Source: Aquificaceae bacterium (GTDB lineage Bacteria > Aquificota > Aquificia > Aquificales > Aquificaceae). From it: a stretch of 64,000 nt of DNA. Positions 15,326 through 29,149 of the stretch are shown piece by piece. Every line of letters starts with the position of its first letter. The first letter of the stretch is position 1. Under the pieces are notes generated by a model that was given only the letters and a program-made list of their open reading frames with translations, made no database searches and was not told where the DNA came from. The stretch is taken from NCBI GenBank assembly GCA_037924335.1, contig JAXSMZ010000001.1, forward strand, positions 1 through 64,000. The letters are read 5' to 3'. The position numbers and the translations under genes were made by a program.

Positions 15326-16047
15326 CCTTCATCATTATTTTGCAAACTCTGTGCCAACTCCTTCAGAAGGTTCACTATGCTTTCCATGCTTGGTTTTTCA
15401 GGCATTAAACAATCCAACCCTGACAGAGAAGAAAACTCTTCTTTTGTAGTTTTGCCAATGCAGACCGTTATTTTACTCTTTAGAACCCTTATGGATTCTT
15501 CCTTTTGCAAATTTGCAAAAAGACTTTTAATGGACGACGGACTTGCAAAGACCAATACATCAGCCTTGGATAGCTTGTCAAGGAGTTTCTTCCTTTCGTA
15601 AACAACCCCTTGCGTTGTGTACACATCGACTGGGTAGACATCAAATCCCAAATTTTTAAGCCCCTTTATGAGGTTGTCTTTTCCCTCTCTTGAGCGAGGT
15701 ATGAGCACCTTCCCCCTCTTACCTTCCATGATTTTTAGAATCTCTGAAGCGTAGTACTTTTCTGGCACATGATGGACCCTGTAGCCGTACTTTTCAACGG
15801 ATGACCTTGTAACTTCTCCAACTGCTATTATCCTTTCACCTCCCCCAAGCTTTTTTCTGTTCAAAAAGTATCTTACAGCTTTCTCGCTTTGAAAGATAAC
15901 ATAGTCAAAAGTATCATCTTGGAGCTCAAACTCCAAGGGCTTTATTTTTATCAAAGGGATAGCGATAACTTCAAATCCTTCCCTCTCAAATATCTTCCTG
16001 TCTTTCTGTAAGTCCTCTTTACTCCTTGTTAAACCCACTTTAAACAC
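15322..16047 (-). CDS. hemD: Uroporphyrinogen-III synthase
   Basis: LTR, AVGEVT, VYTT, FASPSS, CIGKTT motifs. Confidence 0.9.
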
Positions 16048-16080
16048 GATAGAATTATTTTACGAAACCTCCACAAGATG

Positions 16081-16210
16081 AATTGTGGTAAAATAATAAT
16101 ACATAAACCTGTCTGGCATAGGCAGTAATCTATGCCCTACCGCTGGACTGGCGGGAAGTTATGCCCCCACAAGGGGAAGCTCCTCATTGGAATAGAGGAG
16201 AGGAAGTCAC
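16081..16210 (+). mobile_element. Non-autonomous IS200/IS605-derived unit / omegaRNA-like ncRNA, copy 1
   Basis: Homologous to 28946-29073 (-); TGGTAAAAT promoter-like box, GGCATAG/CTATGCC hairpin, TACCGCTGG..GGGAAGT, terminal CTCCTC/GAGGAG hairpin, ends GGAAGTCAC. Confidence 0.75.
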
Positions 16211-16237
16211 GTAAGCACTGAATGAGAAATTGGTTAT

Positions 16238-16263
16238 GTAGGAGCAATTCATGAATGCCCTAC
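16238..16263 (+). repeat. GTAG-type REP-like palindrome
   Basis: GTAGGAGCAATTCATGAATGCCCTAC, imperfect palindrome bounded by GTAG...CTAC. Confidence 0.65.
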
Positions 16264-16308
16264 AGAGGATGAATCTCTCACTCAGCGTATGATAGAATTA
16301 TTCTACAT

Positions 16309-17577
16309 ATGTCAAAGTTCCTAGTAAAGAAAGGAAGAGTTGTAGACCCATCCCAGAACATGGACGTTGTAAGAGATATTCTGATAGAGAATGGGGTGAT
16401 AAAGAGCATTGGGGAAGATATATTTGAACATGATGCCCAAATTGTAGATGCATCGGGGAAGGTTGTATGCCCATCTTTTGTAGACTTTCATGTACACCTT
16501 AGAGACCCAGGTCAAACCTATAAAGAAGATATAGAATCTGGGAGCAGGTGTGCAGTGGCTGGTGGTTATACGCACATGGTTTGCATGCCCAACACAAAAC
16601 CCCCAATAGATTCACCGGAGATAGTAGAGTATATAAAGGATAAGGCAGAGAAAGTTGGTCTTTGCCGCATTATGCCATCTGGTGCTATAACAAAGGGTAG
16701 GGAGGGCAAAGAGCTGACAGACTTTTACGCACTAAAAAGGGCTGGATGCCTTGTCCTTACAGACGATGGTAGCCCTTTGATGGATTCAAGGCTTATGAAA
16801 AAAGCCCTTGAGCTTGCGGGACAGCTTGGCCTTCTTGTTATGAACCACTGTGAGGACGATAAACTGGCTTATGGGTATGTAAACGATGGATACGTGAGCA
16901 GTCTCTTAGGCGTTCTTCCAAGACCAAAAAGTGCCGAAGATATTCTGGTAGCAAGGGACTGTATACTTTCTTACTACACTGGTTCTCCCCTTCACATACA
17001 ACATGTTAGCTCTCCACTTTCCGTTGATATGATAAGATACTTTAAAGATAAAGGTGCGAAAGTGTCCTGTGAGATAAACCCCCATCATCTTCTCTTTACG
17101 GAAGAGGAAGTTCTAAAAAGCGGGTCCAATGCTAGAATAAATCCACCACTGAGAAGCCAAAAAGACAGACAGGCTCTCCTTGAAGCTCTGAAAGATGGAA
17201 CCATAGATTGCGTGGCAACAGACCATGCACCCCATGCACCATGGGAAAAGGGTCAGATAGAGAACGCAATGCCCGGAGTGATAGGTCTTCAGACGGCACT
17301 CCCTTCTATGCTGGAGTTGGTCAGAGAAGGCATCATAAACCTGAGAAGGGTGGTGGAACTGATGTCCTGCAACCCTGCAAAGCTTTTAGGGCTTGAATGT
17401 GGAATAAAAGAGGGGTCTTTGGCAAACTTAGTTATCTTTGACCCGGAGAGAGAATGGGTATTGGATGAAAGCACAAACCTTTCCAAATCTAAAAACACAC
17501 CGCTTTGGAACGGAAAGCTCAAAGGGAAAGTCCTTTACACTTTCTTTAATGGAAGGGTAGTTTACAAAGATGTTTAG
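16309..17577 (+). CDS. pyrC: Dihydroorotase
   Basis: DFHVHLRDPG, MPNTKP, NPPLR, ATDHAPH. Confidence 0.96.
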   Translation: MSKFLVKKGRVVDPSQNMDVVRDILIENGVIKSIGEDIFEHDAQIVDASGKVVCPSFVDFHVHLRDPGQTYKEDIESGSRCAVAGGYTHMVCMPNTKPPIDSPEIVEYIKDKAEKVGLCRIMPSGAITKGREGKELTDFYALKRAGCLVLTDDGSPLMDSRLMKKALELAGQLGLLVMNHCEDDKLAYGYVNDGYVSSLLGVLPRPKSAEDILVARDCILSYYTGSPLHIQHVSSPLSVDMIRYFKDKGAKVSCEINPHHLLFTEEEVLKSGSNARINPPLRSQKDRQALLEALKDGTIDCVATDHAPHAPWEKGQIENAMPGVIGLQTALPSMLELVREGIINLRRVVELMSCNPAKLLGLECGIKEGSLANLVIFDPEREWVLDESTNLSKSKNTPLWNGKLKGKVLYTFFNGRVVYKDV

Positions 17578-23523: not shown

Positions 23524-24366
23524 ATGAGTAAAGTGTTTTTTACGTTGTTTGGAGCTCTGTTGTTCGCTGGAATGTCCTTTGCAGAAGAGAAACTTCTGAT
23601 CTTTGCTGGAGCTGCAAGCAAGCCACCTACGGAGGAAGCGGCAAAGGCTTTTGAAAAGAAGTATGGGGTCAAGGTGGACATCGTATTTGGGGGGTCTGGT
23701 TATGTGCTCAATCAGATGATCCTTACCAAGCAAGGAGACTTGTACTTTCCAGGCTCTTCGGATTATATGGAACTGGCAAAGAGGAAAGGAGTAGTCTTTC
23801 CAGAGACAGAGAAGTATGTGGTCTACCTTGTACCCGCGATCAACGTTCAAAAGGGAAACCCTAAGAATATAAGGTCGCTCAAAGACCTCACAAGGCCAGG
23901 GCTAAGGGTTGCCATAGCCAACCCAGAGGGTGTATGTGTTGGAGCTTATGCTGTTGAGATCATAGAGAGGGAGTTTACACCCGAGGAGAAAGCTGCATTT
24001 AGAAGGAATTTGGTAAACTATACAGAAAGCTGCGAAAAGACCGCTACGGCTATTTCTTTAAAGACTGTTGATGCAGTTATTGGTTGGAGCGTATTTGAGC
24101 ATTGGGATCCTGAGAGGATAGAGACAGTGCCTCTTAAACCTTCTGAGGTTACACGTGTAGGCTACATTCCCATAGCCATATCAAAGTTTACCAAAAACAG
24201 AGAACTAGCGCAGAAGTTCATAGACTTTCTCCTTTCCAAGGAAGGAAAAAACATCTTCAGAAAGTATCATTACTTCATGACGCCTGAGGAAGCTTTCGCT
24301 TGGATAGGTGAGAAAAAGCAAGTAGGCGGAGAGTATGTTGTGCCGAAAGAATGGCTTAAGAAATGA
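23524..24366 (+). CDS. modA: Molybdate/tungstate ABC substrate-binding protein 1
   Basis: Signal peptide, FAGAAS, FGGSG, GDLYFPGS, VQKGNPKNI. Confidence 0.88.
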   Translation: MSKVFFTLFGALLFAGMSFAEEKLLIFAGAASKPPTEEAAKAFEKKYGVKVDIVFGGSGYVLNQMILTKQGDLYFPGSSDYMELAKRKGVVFPETEKYVVYLVPAINVQKGNPKNIRSLKDLTRPGLRVAIANPEGVCVGAYAVEIIEREFTPEEKAAFRRNLVNYTESCEKTATAISLKTVDAVIGWSVFEHWDPERIETVPLKPSEVTRVGYIPIAISKFTKNRELAQKFIDFLLSKEGKNIFRKYHYFMTPEEAFAWIGEKKQVGGEYVVPKEWLKK

Positions 24367-24388
24367 TGTTTAAGAGAGGGGGTGTAGC

Positions 24389-25231
24389 ATGAGTAAAGTG
24401 CTTTTTACGTTGTTTGGAGCTCTGTTGTTCACTGGAATGTCCTTTGCAGAAGAGAAACTTCTGATCTTTTCAGGAGCTGCTTTTAAAAAGCCTATAGACG
24501 ATATTGCAAGTCTTTTTGAAAAAAAAACAGGAATAAAGGTTTATGTCACTTACGGTAGTGTAGAAACTGTTATGTCTCAACTGATATTAGCGAAAAAAGG
24601 TGATGTTTTAATAGTCCCGTCTCCTGATATTATGGATAGAGCGGTCAAAACAAAACTCGTAAAAAAAGAAAGCATCAAAGAATTTTCTTACCAGGTCCCT
24701 ACCATATTAGTTCAGAAGGGTAACCCCAAAAACATTACGGGATTAAAAGACCTGCTGAGGGATGATGTCAAATTTGCTATGGCAAATCCGGAAAGCGTTT
24801 ATATAGGAATGCTCGCTGCGGAAATTTTTGATAAAAATCTATCGGAGGCAGAAAGAGAAGTTTTAAGAAAAAAGATTGTGACTTATGCCGAGGATATTTC
24901 AAAGCTCACGACATACCTGATTATGAATCAGGTAGATGCAATAGTGGGTTTTGATTTTTTGCACGGTTGGAATCCTGATAAGACAGATATAGTTAAGTTT
25001 AAAAGCAATGAGATCATTCGTATAGGTGCGGGGCAGGCAGGAGTAATCACATATACGACTAACGAAGAAAAGGCAAGGAAGTTTATAGAATTTATGCTAT
25101 CGGACGACGGACAAAGCGTTTTTAAAAAATATGGGTATCTCAGTTCCGAAAAAGATGCCTTTGGTTTTGCAGGGAAAAAAGTAGTCATTGGAGGATCTCC
25201 TTCGGTGAGTAAGGAGTGGCTTAAGAAATGA
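24389..25231 (+). CDS. modA: ModA-like substrate-binding protein 2
   Basis: Paralog of the upstream gene; VQKGNPKNI, ANPE. Confidence 0.8.
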   Translation: MSKVLFTLFGALLFTGMSFAEEKLLIFSGAAFKKPIDDIASLFEKKTGIKVYVTYGSVETVMSQLILAKKGDVLIVPSPDIMDRAVKTKLVKKESIKEFSYQVPTILVQKGNPKNITGLKDLLRDDVKFAMANPESVYIGMLAAEIFDKNLSEAEREVLRKKIVTYAEDISKLTTYLIMNQVDAIVGFDFLHGWNPDKTDIVKFKSNEIIRIGAGQAGVITYTTNEEKARKFIEFMLSDDGQSVFKKYGYLSSEKDAFGFAGKKVVIGGSPSVSKEWLKK

Positions 25232-26004: not shown

Positions 26005-27089
26005 TAGATGTTATAGACCTGCATGTTAAAGTAAGAGCCTTTTCTTTAAAGAATGTATCCCTGAAGGTGCAAACTGGCTCATGCCATTGTCTGATAGGTC
26101 CCACTGGATGTGGCAAAACTACCCTTCTTGAGGCAATCCTTGGTTTGAGGAAGGTCGAAAAGGGAACAGTTCTGCTCGATGGAAAAGATATCACAAACCT
26201 ACCTCTGCATAAAAGGGGTTTCTCTTACGTTCCGCAGGATTTGGCCATATTCCCCCATCTCACGGTAGAGGAGAACATTATCTACGGAATAAAACATAGC
26301 AATGTTTCTAATAAAAAGAAGAGGTACGATGAGGCCATTAAGTTGGTACACTTGCTTGGTATTGCACATTTACTTAAGAGGAAGGCTGTTAACCTCAGTG
26401 GTGGCGAAAAACAAAGGGTCGCCCTCGCAAGGGCACTTGCACCAGGACACAAATATCTTCTTCTTGACGAACCTTTATCTGCCCTTCATGAAGGGATGAA
26501 AAAAGAGTTATGGTTTCTACTTAAGGAATTGCAGAAGAAATATGAGTTTACTATCCTCATGGTAAGCCATGATATGGAGGAGACTTTTTTCTTAGCAGAC
26601 CATGTAAGCATTATGATAGATGGAGTTATTCATCAGTCTGATAGAAAGGATGTGGTCTACCGTTATCCCTCAAACTCTGAGGTAGCAAGGTTCTTTGGTA
26701 TAAAGAACATATTTAATGGAGATATAAAGGGTAAGGAAGGTGATCACTATAGACTTTACTGTAAAGAACTAAACGGAGAGATACTGTTGCCCATTGATAG
26801 AATAAACAACATGCCAGAGAGAGGGAGCATTACATTTGGTATAAGAAGCGAGGATGTTATCATGCTAAGGCCAGACCTGCCTATGAAAAAGGAGAACACC
26901 ATCACGGGTGTCGTAAAAGAGATACATCCTGCTGGCTCAAACTCGGTTGTAATGTTCAAACCTGATGGCTCTGATAAACTGATCGAGATAACCATCCCCG
27001 ACTATGCTTTTGCAAAGCTTTACCCAAAGCCATCTATGCGTGCAAACATTACTCTAAGAAGTGATAGGCTTTTTGTGCTGAAAAGCTAA
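26001..27089 (+). CDS. modC: Molybdate ABC ATPase
   Basis: [25 protein letters not shown]-like tail. Confidence 0.88.
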
Positions 27090-28945
27090 CCCTCATATCT
27101 GAGGTAAACTCCTGCAAGGGGAGGGAGTGTGAGAAGGACCGAGTATGGCCTTCCATGAAAGGGAAAATCCTCAGCGTAAACTCCCTCTGCATCTCCAAAG
27201 CCAGAACCTCCGTAAACTTTTGCATCGCTGTTTATTATTCTTTTCCAGAATCCCTTTTTGGGTACTCCTATCCTGTAGTTCTCCCTTGGGACGGGCGTGA
27301 AGTTGAAAACGCAAAGGATAAGGTTATCCCTAGATTTTCTTAAAAAGCTTATAACACTCTGCTCGTAGTCAGAAAAATCTATCCACTCAAAGCCTTCCCA
27401 GCTGAAGTCTATCTCATAGAGTGCTGGGTTCTCTTTTACCATTCCGTTTAGGTCTCTTACTAAATTCTGAACTCCTCTGTGTGTATCCCAGTCAAGGAGG
27501 AACCAGTCTAGGCCTCTGTCGTGGTTCCACTCCTCCCACTGTCCAAACTCTCCCCCCATGAAGAGAAGTTTTTTACCAGGATGAGCGTACATGTAAGTAA
27601 AAAGAAGCCTTAGGTTGGCAAATTTCTGCCACCAGTCTTTTGGCATCTTGCTTATAAGCGAGCCTTTGCCATGAACTACCTCGTCATGGGAGAGAGGGAG
27701 GAGGAAGTTCTCAGAGAAGGCGTACCACATGCTAAAGGTCAAGCTATCATGGTGGTACTTTCTGTGTATTGGGTCCTTAGAAAAGTAATAGAGGGTATCG
27801 TGCATCCATCCCATATTCCATTTCATACCAAAGCCAAGACCTCCCAAGTATGTGGGCCTAGTCACCATAGGCCATGCCGTTGACTCTTCTGCTATGGTTT
27901 GAACATGGGGGAAGTCCCTGTATATACATTCGTTTAGCTTCCTTATAAAATCAATAGCTTCCAAGTTTTCCCTTCCACCGTATACGTTTGGTGTCCATTG
28001 ACCATCTTTTCTCGAATAATCAAGATAGAGCATAGAGGCAACAGCATCTACTCTGACAGCATCTATGTGGTACTTTTCAAACCAAAAGTGAGCAGAGCTC
28101 AGAAGAAAGGACCTTACCTCTGGCTTTGAATAGTCAAAGATATAGCTGTTCCAGTCTGGGTGGTGTCTCTTCCTGTGGTCTTCGTATTCGTAAAGATGAG
28201 TTCCGTCAAAGTAAACCAAGGCGTGGCCATCTGTGGGAAAGTGAGATGGTACCCAGTCAAGCACTACACCTATACCCTCCTGGTGCAGTCTATCAACTAA
28301 GTACATAAAGTCTTGCGGTTTACCGTAGCGTGAAGTGGGGGCAAAGTAACCAGTTGTCTGGTAGCCCCAAGAGCCGTAAAAGGGATGCTCCATGATGGGT
28401 AAAAACTCCACATGAGTAAAACCCATATGCTTTACGTAATCTACAAGCTCATGAGCAAGTTCCCTGTAGCTTAAAGATTCCCACCCCCTCTTCTTCCAAG
28501 AGCCAAGATGAACCTCGTATATGAGCCAAGGAGAGCTAAGCGAGTTTTCTGTATGTCTTTTTTCAATCCATCCTCTATCGTTCCATGTATAATCCATGTC
28601 CCACACTATGCTTGCCGTTTTTGGTGGTACTTCAAAGAAGAAGCCAAAGGGGTCTGTCTTTTCCGCCTCATAGCCTGTCTTTGAAACTATAAAGTATTTG
28701 TAAAGGTCTCCCGCCTTAGCTTCTGGCACAAAGGCTTCCCATATGCCAGAACCGTCCTCTCTTCTTTTCATAGGGTTTTTGCCTCTGTCCCAATGGTTAA
28801 AGCCCCCTATAACAGACAGATAAACAGCATTTGGAGCCCACACGGCAAAGTAAACGCCACCATTCAAAGGATGAGCACCCAGCTTATCGTAAAGCCTACA
28901 ATGAGCCCCTTCTCTAAAGAGATAAACATCATAGTCTGTGATCAT
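27086..28945 (-). CDS. glgB: 1,4-alpha-glucan branching enzyme
   Basis: [38 protein letters not shown]. Confidence 0.97.
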
Positions 28946-29073
28946 ATGACCTCCTCTCCTTACTCAAAGGAGGAGCTTCCCTTCCTCAGGGCATCACTTC
29001 CCTCAGTCCAGCGGTAAGGCATAGAGAACTGCCTATGCCAGACAGGTTTATGTATTATTATTTTATCACAATT
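28946..29073 (-). mobile_element. Non-autonomous IS200/IS605-derived unit / omegaRNA-like ncRNA, copy 2 (abuts glgB ATG)
   Basis: Reverse complement aligns with 16081-16210; ends GGAGGTCAT directly before ATG. Confidence 0.75.
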
Positions 29074-29149
29074 TAAAAGGAGAGCCTTCTTGTGGATGTT
29101 TCGTAAAACTCATGCAAAAAAAATTTTAATGTATAAAATAAATGGCATT

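Follow-up and report, generated by a model that had tools for sequence, protein, structure and literature searches.

Elements of the IS200/IS605 family are excised scarlessly by TnpA, and TnpB with its omegaRNA then cuts the empty site, restoring the element (10.1101/2023.03.14.532601). PATEs (palindrome-associated transposable elements) of such transposons frequently code for omegaRNAs, which TnpB can draw on only in trans (10.1101/2023.03.14.532601), and standalone omegaRNAs have been shown to work in trans (PMC10691335). Known PATEs come from Haloquadratum (PMC3119063), Halanaerobium (PMC7290912) and Geobacillus (10.1101/2023.03.14.532601), with an IStron PATE in C. difficile (10.1101/2023.11.20.567912). 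Two related repeats in the window, by which we mean the whole 64,000-nucleotide stretch analysed here, were read in an earlier note as standalone omegaRNA cassettes or else as a MITE family. Both are, very probably, PATEs: non-autonomous miniature IS200/IS605-family elements derived from a tnpB-only (IS1341-type) transposon whose core was deleted. The fallback to a MITE family was right. The notion of a standalone, purpose-built cassette finds no support, a left end and a target motif being present and empty sites attesting to mobility, and that of an undescribed system gives way to the published accounts, in the parts drawn on here, of protein-free PATEs with trans omegaRNAs (10.1101/2023.03.14.532601, PMC10691335). 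The repeats form an ordinary PATE family, a known kind of element, bearing an omegaRNA.

Like known PATEs, these elements have near-terminal hairpins, neither terminal inverted repeats nor a target duplication, a length too short for a transposase, a short target oligonucleotide and an origin by core deletion; the ends-only form measures 56 bp here and 52 bp for ISHwa23. They differ in host group and sequence family, in carrying the parent's extended -10 directly before a whole scaffold, and in a parent TnpB with a RuvC-II Glu-to-Gln replacement. Standalone OMEGA omegaRNA loci (PMC10691335; Meers et al.) are likewise mobilised and protein-free, with a scaffold followed by a guide from outside the element; for those, trans function with an effector of the same genome has been shown, whereas the present loci, known from sequence, lack an intact cognate effector in the assembly. 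The omegaRNA of ISDra2 (PMC10097598) is similar in its ~110-116-nt scaffold overlapping the tnpB 3' end, its terminal stem, and a pseudoknot that joins a stem loop with the last bases before the guide; its distal stem 3b is dispensable (Trim2) and is naturally absent from the PATE scaffold. The two differ in sequence and in TAM, which is TTGAT for ISDra2 and, as inferred, TTTAC here. As in TldR and domesticated dead TnpBs (PMC10705468), the cognate TnpB has lost a catalytic residue to substitution, but the cognate clade keeps two of three catalytic Asp and has a near-invariant new acidic residue, and the elements, far from being fixed, are mobile and vary in their guides. No paper on this PATE family or on the Gln-bearing clade was found in the mostly non-subscription literature searched; the family may be listed in supplements of PMC10691335 or of bioRxiv preprints. 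Nothing in the part of the PMC10691335 supplement drawn on here places the Gln clade, which its additional data files may already list.

Copies, target sites and guides

The two window copies and their TAMs lie as follows.

16059..16063, + strand: TAM TTTAC of copy 1, on the host side of the left junction; TTTAC stands at 10 of 11 left ends in the genome
16064..16210, + strand: putative PATE copy 1, 147 bp; by alignment to full-length copies, a 24-bp deletion took its left-end hairpin
28946..29102, - strand: putative PATE copy 2, 157 bp; a 12-bp deletion took the 3' arm of its left-end hairpin
29103..29107, - strand: TAM TTTAC of copy 2, from its sequence and the genome alignment

The earlier note had matched the copies at 66 of 70 nt, and recomputation (16081-16150 on the + strand against 29073-29004 on the - strand) returns the same figure; blastn aligns them over 164 columns at E 2e-39. 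On re-reading, the GGCATAG/CTATGCC stem with two of the four changes in its loop, the diverged stems (CCCC/GGGG against CCCT/AGGG, CTCCTC/GAGGAG against CTCCTT/AAGGAG) and the ends, TCAC in copy 1 and TCAT in copy 2, are all as it described them. Homology reaches ~20 nt further left than first noted, up to the common TTTAC (16059-16063; 29107-29103), and in copy 2 stem 1 is damaged.

Taken at first to be present twice, the family has 13 copies across the genome's 39 contigs (1.53 Mb), found by a right-end motif scan in which 13 of 27 matches had the family's upstream sequence and the 14 without it were discarded by eye. A typical member is ~170 bp long, lies 3' of TTTAC, ends in TCAC and has a hairpin at each end, the left one reading CTCTCC...GGAGAG in full copies and broken in both window copies. 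There are five full-length copies (168-176 bp including TTTAC), two longer variants, the two window copies, one copy split by another insertion sequence, one right-end fragment, a 56-bp copy (C1:182197-182142) that is a fusion of the left and right ends and nothing else, and a 711-bp copy; with the TAM included, 12 copies span 56-223 bp and the last, which is decayed, 711 bp. Identity among the seven short copies compared is 87-97%. TCAC closes 12 of the 13 copies, TTTAT replaces TTTAC at one of the 11 left junctions, both near-terminal hairpins are intact in 8/13, and terminal inverted repeats are absent. The promoter-like TGnTAAAAT is kept in 7/13 and the whole scaffold in 10/13, with the ends-only form found once, a distribution that fits, without proving, a benefit of retaining the omegaRNA. 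Outside the window, copies lie between convergent genes, oppose the next gene or sit within a broken gene. The assembly breaks at IS copies, with many tnpB pieces at the ends of its 39 contigs, and no orphan family end, the sign of a missing full copy, was found at its contig edges.

Two further observations concern variants and neighbours. In one PATE variant (C2:129960-130030) an expanded run of AAT separates promoter from scaffold, and mobile-element nests at C4:54731-55300 and C27:11850-12453 hold PATEs in or beside other tnpB-family remnants and an inverted-end family.

What had been taken for distinct guides at copies 1 and 2 are the insertion-site flanks following TTTAC, and across the family the guide is different at each of the 13 copies and identical to the host flank. 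Empty sites were sought in congeners for 8 of the 13, of which four were informative (C30, C11 and both window copies) and four were not (C23, C8, C2b, C4a), larger regions being missing or poorly aligned. The search for relatives without the element, proposed in the earlier note, succeeded: both window copies are absent from the congener G006, and the window-copy loci have no match in 6/6 same-genus genomes. At the C30 site in G006, CTTAC is joined straight to the right flank with no duplication; the C11 site is near-clean, its first bases differing from the flank, and the copy-2 site in G006 is near-clean but has TTCCC instead of TTTAC. TTTAC or TTTAT at 11/11 left ends, together with the clean C30 site, indicates insertion 3' of a short motif without duplication. 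For all 13 guides, the longest match of TAM plus guide elsewhere in the genome is 6-10 nt.

Only the two window guides were searched against viral contigs. That for copy 2 had no match; that for copy 1 had one, TTAC plus 14/16 nt with the fifth TAM base missing, which we rejected as a target because it is at about chance level. We take the viral collection to be ~50 Gb, in which about one exact 18-mer would be expected by chance. The family pattern had 0 matches in viral contigs, and a single 31-nt match (E 0.04) of the full PATE among 50,697 phage records was dismissed.

Parent elements, promoter and scaffold fold

Homologous ends linked to tnpB were found within the order. The 711-bp decayed copy (C2:31804-32514) has frameshifted tnpB pieces inside, and in a genome of the same order like ends surround a 452-codon tnpB frame (L003); searched with this TnpB, 23 of the order's 148 genomes gave a match at E <= 1e-60. 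The PATE ends are homologous to those of the tnpB loci L131, L003, L058 and L060, the left ends of the last two being 88% identical to the PATE left end, and to those of the tnpA + tnpB locus L161. Thirty parent loci share the same end anatomy wherever ends are present, and the middle stem of their right end is longer; no tnpA lies within 1.5 kb of these loci, several of which are truncated by contig ends. The short-form right-end pattern was found at 15 metagenome loci, 4 genome loci and 0 viral loci. Six of these 19 loci are PATEs of ~180 bp with a different deletion junction, and at another (L131) a 289-aa tnpB frame runs into the same short right end, which argues that the short scaffold is the parent's own and not a minimised one. 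Five proteins (P0001-P0005) are full-length TnpB relatives by NCBIfam and fold, and tblastn with P0002 and P0003 matched the PATE copies on C2, C4, C8 and C23. The claim that no ORF lies inside the repeats holds for genes, but not for the 3' 110 nt, which in frame are the last tnpB codons. A search for more copies and a parent tnpB, suggested at the outset, thus yielded the 13 copies, L131 and a tnpA-bearing IS605 relative in the genome G014. This IS605 (L161, Y1 tnpA plus tnpB) agrees with the PATE at 22/22 nt in the left hairpin and at 33/36 nt in the right end and, from this sequence likeness, would be the best candidate kind of mobiliser.

Several related loci deserve mention in their own right. 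A near-identical PATE (L144:2476-2655) sits in a record titled Ca. Aenigmatarchaeota genome, and the closest TnpBs (P0004, P0005, P0007, P0085) carry the labels archaeon, WOR-3 and Desulfurococcaceae; either cross-domain spread or binning error would account for such labels. In G014, the IS605 with tnpA and tnpB (L004:1-1400) stops ~110-130 bp away from a run of repeats which, once translated, resembles a CRISPR array. Related genomes hold further protein-free elements whose ends are akin to these, at L002:1308-1527 (G017), where most of the scaffold is lost, and at L009:1300-1536 (G014).

The predicted promoter and scaffold of copy 1 comprise the following features, the structural ones taken from pair counts over 18 ends.

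16086..16094, + strand: extended -10 TGgTAAAAT, with a predicted start at ~16101, recognised by likeness to loci L136 and L140
16101..16210, + strand: omegaRNA-like scaffold, formed by the 3' end of tnpB and the right end, with terminal TCAC
16115-16136, + strand: scaffold hairpin
16140-16154, + strand: stem with loop GACT at 16146-16149
16164-16176, + strand: short stem
16180-16200, + strand: terminal hairpin
16205-16208, + strand: pseudoknot partner AGTC

At L136 and L140 the tnpB ATG is kept 9 nt after TGTGGTAAAAT and the first codons match the P0001 N-terminus, a context which suggests that the extended -10 derives from the promoter of the parent's tnpB, moved beside the scaffold by the deletion; the promoter of the PATEs would then be inherited and not, as first described, a standalone one. 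A -35/-10 promoter scan listed the extended -10 of neither window copy. The junction types of the window copies, L126 and L140 differ, yet all keep promoter and scaffold.

A model of five helices with a pseudoknot pairs 98.2% of 448 cells over 18 short-form ends, compared with 92.9 +/- 0.6% in shuffled controls (0/500 reach the observed value) and 38-55% in slid controls, figures to be read knowing that the model was drawn from the same sequences it was scored on and that related ends are not independent. Double changes occur at 6/25 pairs, in 4/5 helices including the pseudoknot, with none in the terminal hairpin. The variable pseudoknot pair reads U-A in 13 of the 18 ends, with four C-G and one U-G; when its columns are left out of the tree building, it changes three times, at least two of these forced by well-supported branches, a count not clearly below that for shuffled labels. 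Over 43 ends from 63 loci, some of them duplicates, it reads T-A 23, C-G 7, T-G 4, A-T 1 and T-T 8 times. The covariation check thus came out positive by pair counts over the 18 ends, the pseudoknot included, and the covariation may come from inheritance from parents or from gene conversion. Whole-strand folding energy is unexceptional against shuffles (z -0.87 and -1.08), so the structure rests on covariation and not on energy, and an Rfam scan of 15900-16400 returned five matches, all far below the gathering score. The scaffold with its 3' pseudoknot is conserved and ends at the element boundary. Together, the tnpB-linked ends and the covariation bear out the earlier identification of an IS200/IS605 right end carrying a TnpB omegaRNA scaffold.

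Surroundings of the window copies

Copy 1 lies in a composite insertion between divergent hemD and pyrC-like starts.

16046..16063, + strand: left 18-bp direct repeat, 16/18 identical to the right one, holding the hemD start and the TAM
16211..16288, + strand: second mini-element with inverted ends, unrelated to the PATE; its right end belongs to a genome repeat family with 15 matches
16289..16306, + strand: right 18-bp direct repeat, containing an extended -10 immediately ahead of the pyrC-like start (16309)

The copy-1 guide is the first 16 nt of the 78-bp inverted-end element. In G006 and in one contig of run X8, 243 bp are missing here, comprising the PATE, the 78-bp element and one 18-bp repeat; the repeat, single at the G006 empty site, is a probable target duplication of the second element. 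In the simplest order of events, the inverted-end element would have come in before the PATE, with duplication of the hemD/pyrC promoter region, and the PATE would then have entered the TTTAC at its edge. The copy-1 guide is the end of another mobile element.

Further members of the inverted-end family occur at C4:78315-78659 and C5:54714-55127, among 15 end matches; two paired copies have target duplications of 23 and 25 bp, and a third has none. DNA beyond the ends is AT-rich, often with a TATAAT-like -10, as if the family targeted and duplicated promoters, and a Mutator-family transposase remnant lies near one end, its link to the family unproven. At L072:1480-1520 in G006 the divergent hemD and pyrC-like starts stand 18 bp apart around a palindromic -10 pair (compare window 16040-16311). 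In other congeners TATAAT lies 6-7 nt before the pyrC ATG, a spacing that suggests leaderless mRNAs. Elsewhere in the window (23524-25231), tandem diverged genes for periplasmic binding proteins of 280 aa each, with near-identical N-termini, precede an ABC permease and ATPase; we presume these genes to be molybdate/tungstate-like.

Copy 2 abuts glgB.

27086-28945, - strand: glgB ORF, with CBM_48, alpha-amylase and GlgB_N domains
28930..28945, - strand: copy-2 guide, the first 16 nt of the glgB coding sequence; the glgB start is conserved in G006, G003, G004 and G005
28949..28955, - strand: AGGAGGT, a Shine-Dalgarno-like run within the right end and 3 nt upstream of the glgB ATG
29060..29068, - strand: extended -10 TGaTAAAAT of copy 2, apparently the nearest promoter-like site upstream of glgB

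The AGGAGGT run overlaps the pseudoknot 3' arm of copy 2. All four of these congeners have the glgB start region without the PATE. In G003, G004 and G005 an in-frame ATG lies four codons upstream and closely follows an AT-rich stretch resembling a -10 (in G003 and G004, TAAAAT 9 nt ahead of that ATG); in G006 the upstream ATG is out of frame. Copy 2 lies between this upstream ATG/-10-like region and glgB, and on the strength of these positions it may now supply the glgB promoter and ribosome-binding site, acting in cis.

Cognate TnpB, present activity and meaning

Among the 120 cognate-clade homologues listed, of 183 found, the RuvC-II Glu is Gln in 119, the RuvC-I Asp is kept in 119 and the RuvC-III Asp in 117, and a near-invariant Asp/Glu stands two residues past the Gln in 119 (P0001 283-285). 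The predicted model of the cognate TnpB has a TnpB fold (pLDDT 87.9), with ISFba1 and ISDra2 TnpB as best matches and with Gln283 ending the strand 277-283. The Gln-bearing clade occurs in thermal habitats and its elements are still mobile; from sequence and model, it is a candidate for either a rearranged active site or a non-cutting TnpB. Clades with a conserved RuvC-II rearrangement have been described, one of them with an active member (PMC10691335, PMC10278001).

Helpers were sought in the same genome. Y1_Tnp and Resolvase profiles have no match in the 39-contig assembly, with controls positive in 6 and 12 of 14 genomes, respectively, and Y1 is present in 38/148 genomes of the order. The suggested action in trans with a TnpB or TldR encoded elsewhere survives as a mechanism conditional on such a protein, but not as a description of this assembly, which holds no intact cognate TnpB or TldR-like copy, the only matches being the decayed C2 copy and the PATE ends. 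Its 23 TnpB zinc-finger matches belong to other families, many at contig ends, whose identity to the cognate is 23-46% over partial stretches.

If the repeats are PATEs, most of tnpB would have been deleted from a tnpB-only IS1341-type transposon, and Y1 TnpA in trans would have moved the products by peel-and-paste. The deletion would have left ~10 nt between the parent's tnpB promoter and the scaffold, enabling each copy to transcribe an omegaRNA of ~110 nt with the insertion-site flank as its 3' 16 nt. Given a cognate TnpB, the RNA would guide cleavage at the empty site (TTTAC plus flank) once the element was excised; the copy would thereby be restored, and the family would have spread and been retained while helpers were present. 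Given that the helpers are absent from the assembly and the left-end hairpin is lost, the window copies are probably stranded relics, and whatever effect they now have is probably in cis.

Compatible with this origin, and concerned with present activity, is the idea that the copies are live trans-acting omegaRNA genes, served by a cognate TnpB that falls in an assembly gap or loaded by another TnpB family. TGnTAAAAT and the scaffold persist in 7 and 10 of the 13 copies and in all three junction types, the pseudoknot pair switches at least twice on the tree, the genome has its 23 zinc-finger matches, and longer elements that share this right end turn up in runs X4 and X6. We nevertheless consider such activity doubtful: the cognate TnpB matches just the decayed C2 copy and PATE ends, the other families are distant and match partially, and no contig edge carries an orphan family end. 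In one RNA run (X9, as contigs, share 0.06) no contig covers the 5' part of the scaffold (16100-16174), the piece at 16175-16210 belongs to another element, and a 171-nt piece over 16243-16399 is indistinguishable from DNA, a coverage that weighs neither way. The window copies, having no left-end hairpin, would also not be excisable, and their guides would then have no empty site to cut. A host-domesticated system of fixed loci and selected guides, with TnpB or TldR acting on host or phage targets, might recruit a non-cutting protein, for which the missing RuvC-II Glu in 119/120 homologues listed could stand, and might take the viral TTAC plus 14 nt of the copy-1 guide as a target. It is very improbable nonetheless, since the loci are unmatched in the 6/6 same-genus genomes, each guide is its own host flank, an origin that the empty sites make largely fatal to this view, TAM-plus-guide matches elsewhere in the genome reach 10 nt at most, and the viral match (14/16 nt, incomplete TAM) is near chance, with none for copy 2.

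Both window copies stand upstream of, and sense with, a gene, copy 2 directly before the glgB ATG with its Shine-Dalgarno-like run, an arrangement that could also be had from a riboswitch or attenuator of non-transposon origin, serving pyrC and glgB as a cis-regulatory leader RNA. This we regard as barely credible, and as an origin we reject it: elsewhere in the genome the element sits between convergent genes, opposes the next gene or falls within a broken gene, there is no Rfam match, the sequence is the 3' end of tnpB, and relatives lack the element. A secondary cis effect at glgB remains part of the PATE explanation, under which copy 2 would be a clear small case of a mobile end rewiring a host promoter and ribosome-binding site. 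A bolder proposal, that copy 2 has been co-opted as the glgB 5' leader within a family acting as a self-promoting guide-RNA cassette, spreading across hot-spring bacteria and archaea with the Gln-clade TnpB, strikes us as improbable; were it true, glycogen branching would be switched by an incoming cognate TnpB through folding or trimming of the glgB mRNA, and copy 2 would be a protein-dependent riboregulator derived from an omegaRNA.

For the PATEs at large, the Aquificaceae elements add one family and confirm the published pattern in a thermophile lineage. They also offer a natural scaffold of ~110 nt, a thermophilic TnpB to match it (P0001-P0003) and TTTAC as the inferred TAM, a combination that would make trans guiding by PATE RNA, and cutting by a Gln-bearing TnpB, cheap to test.
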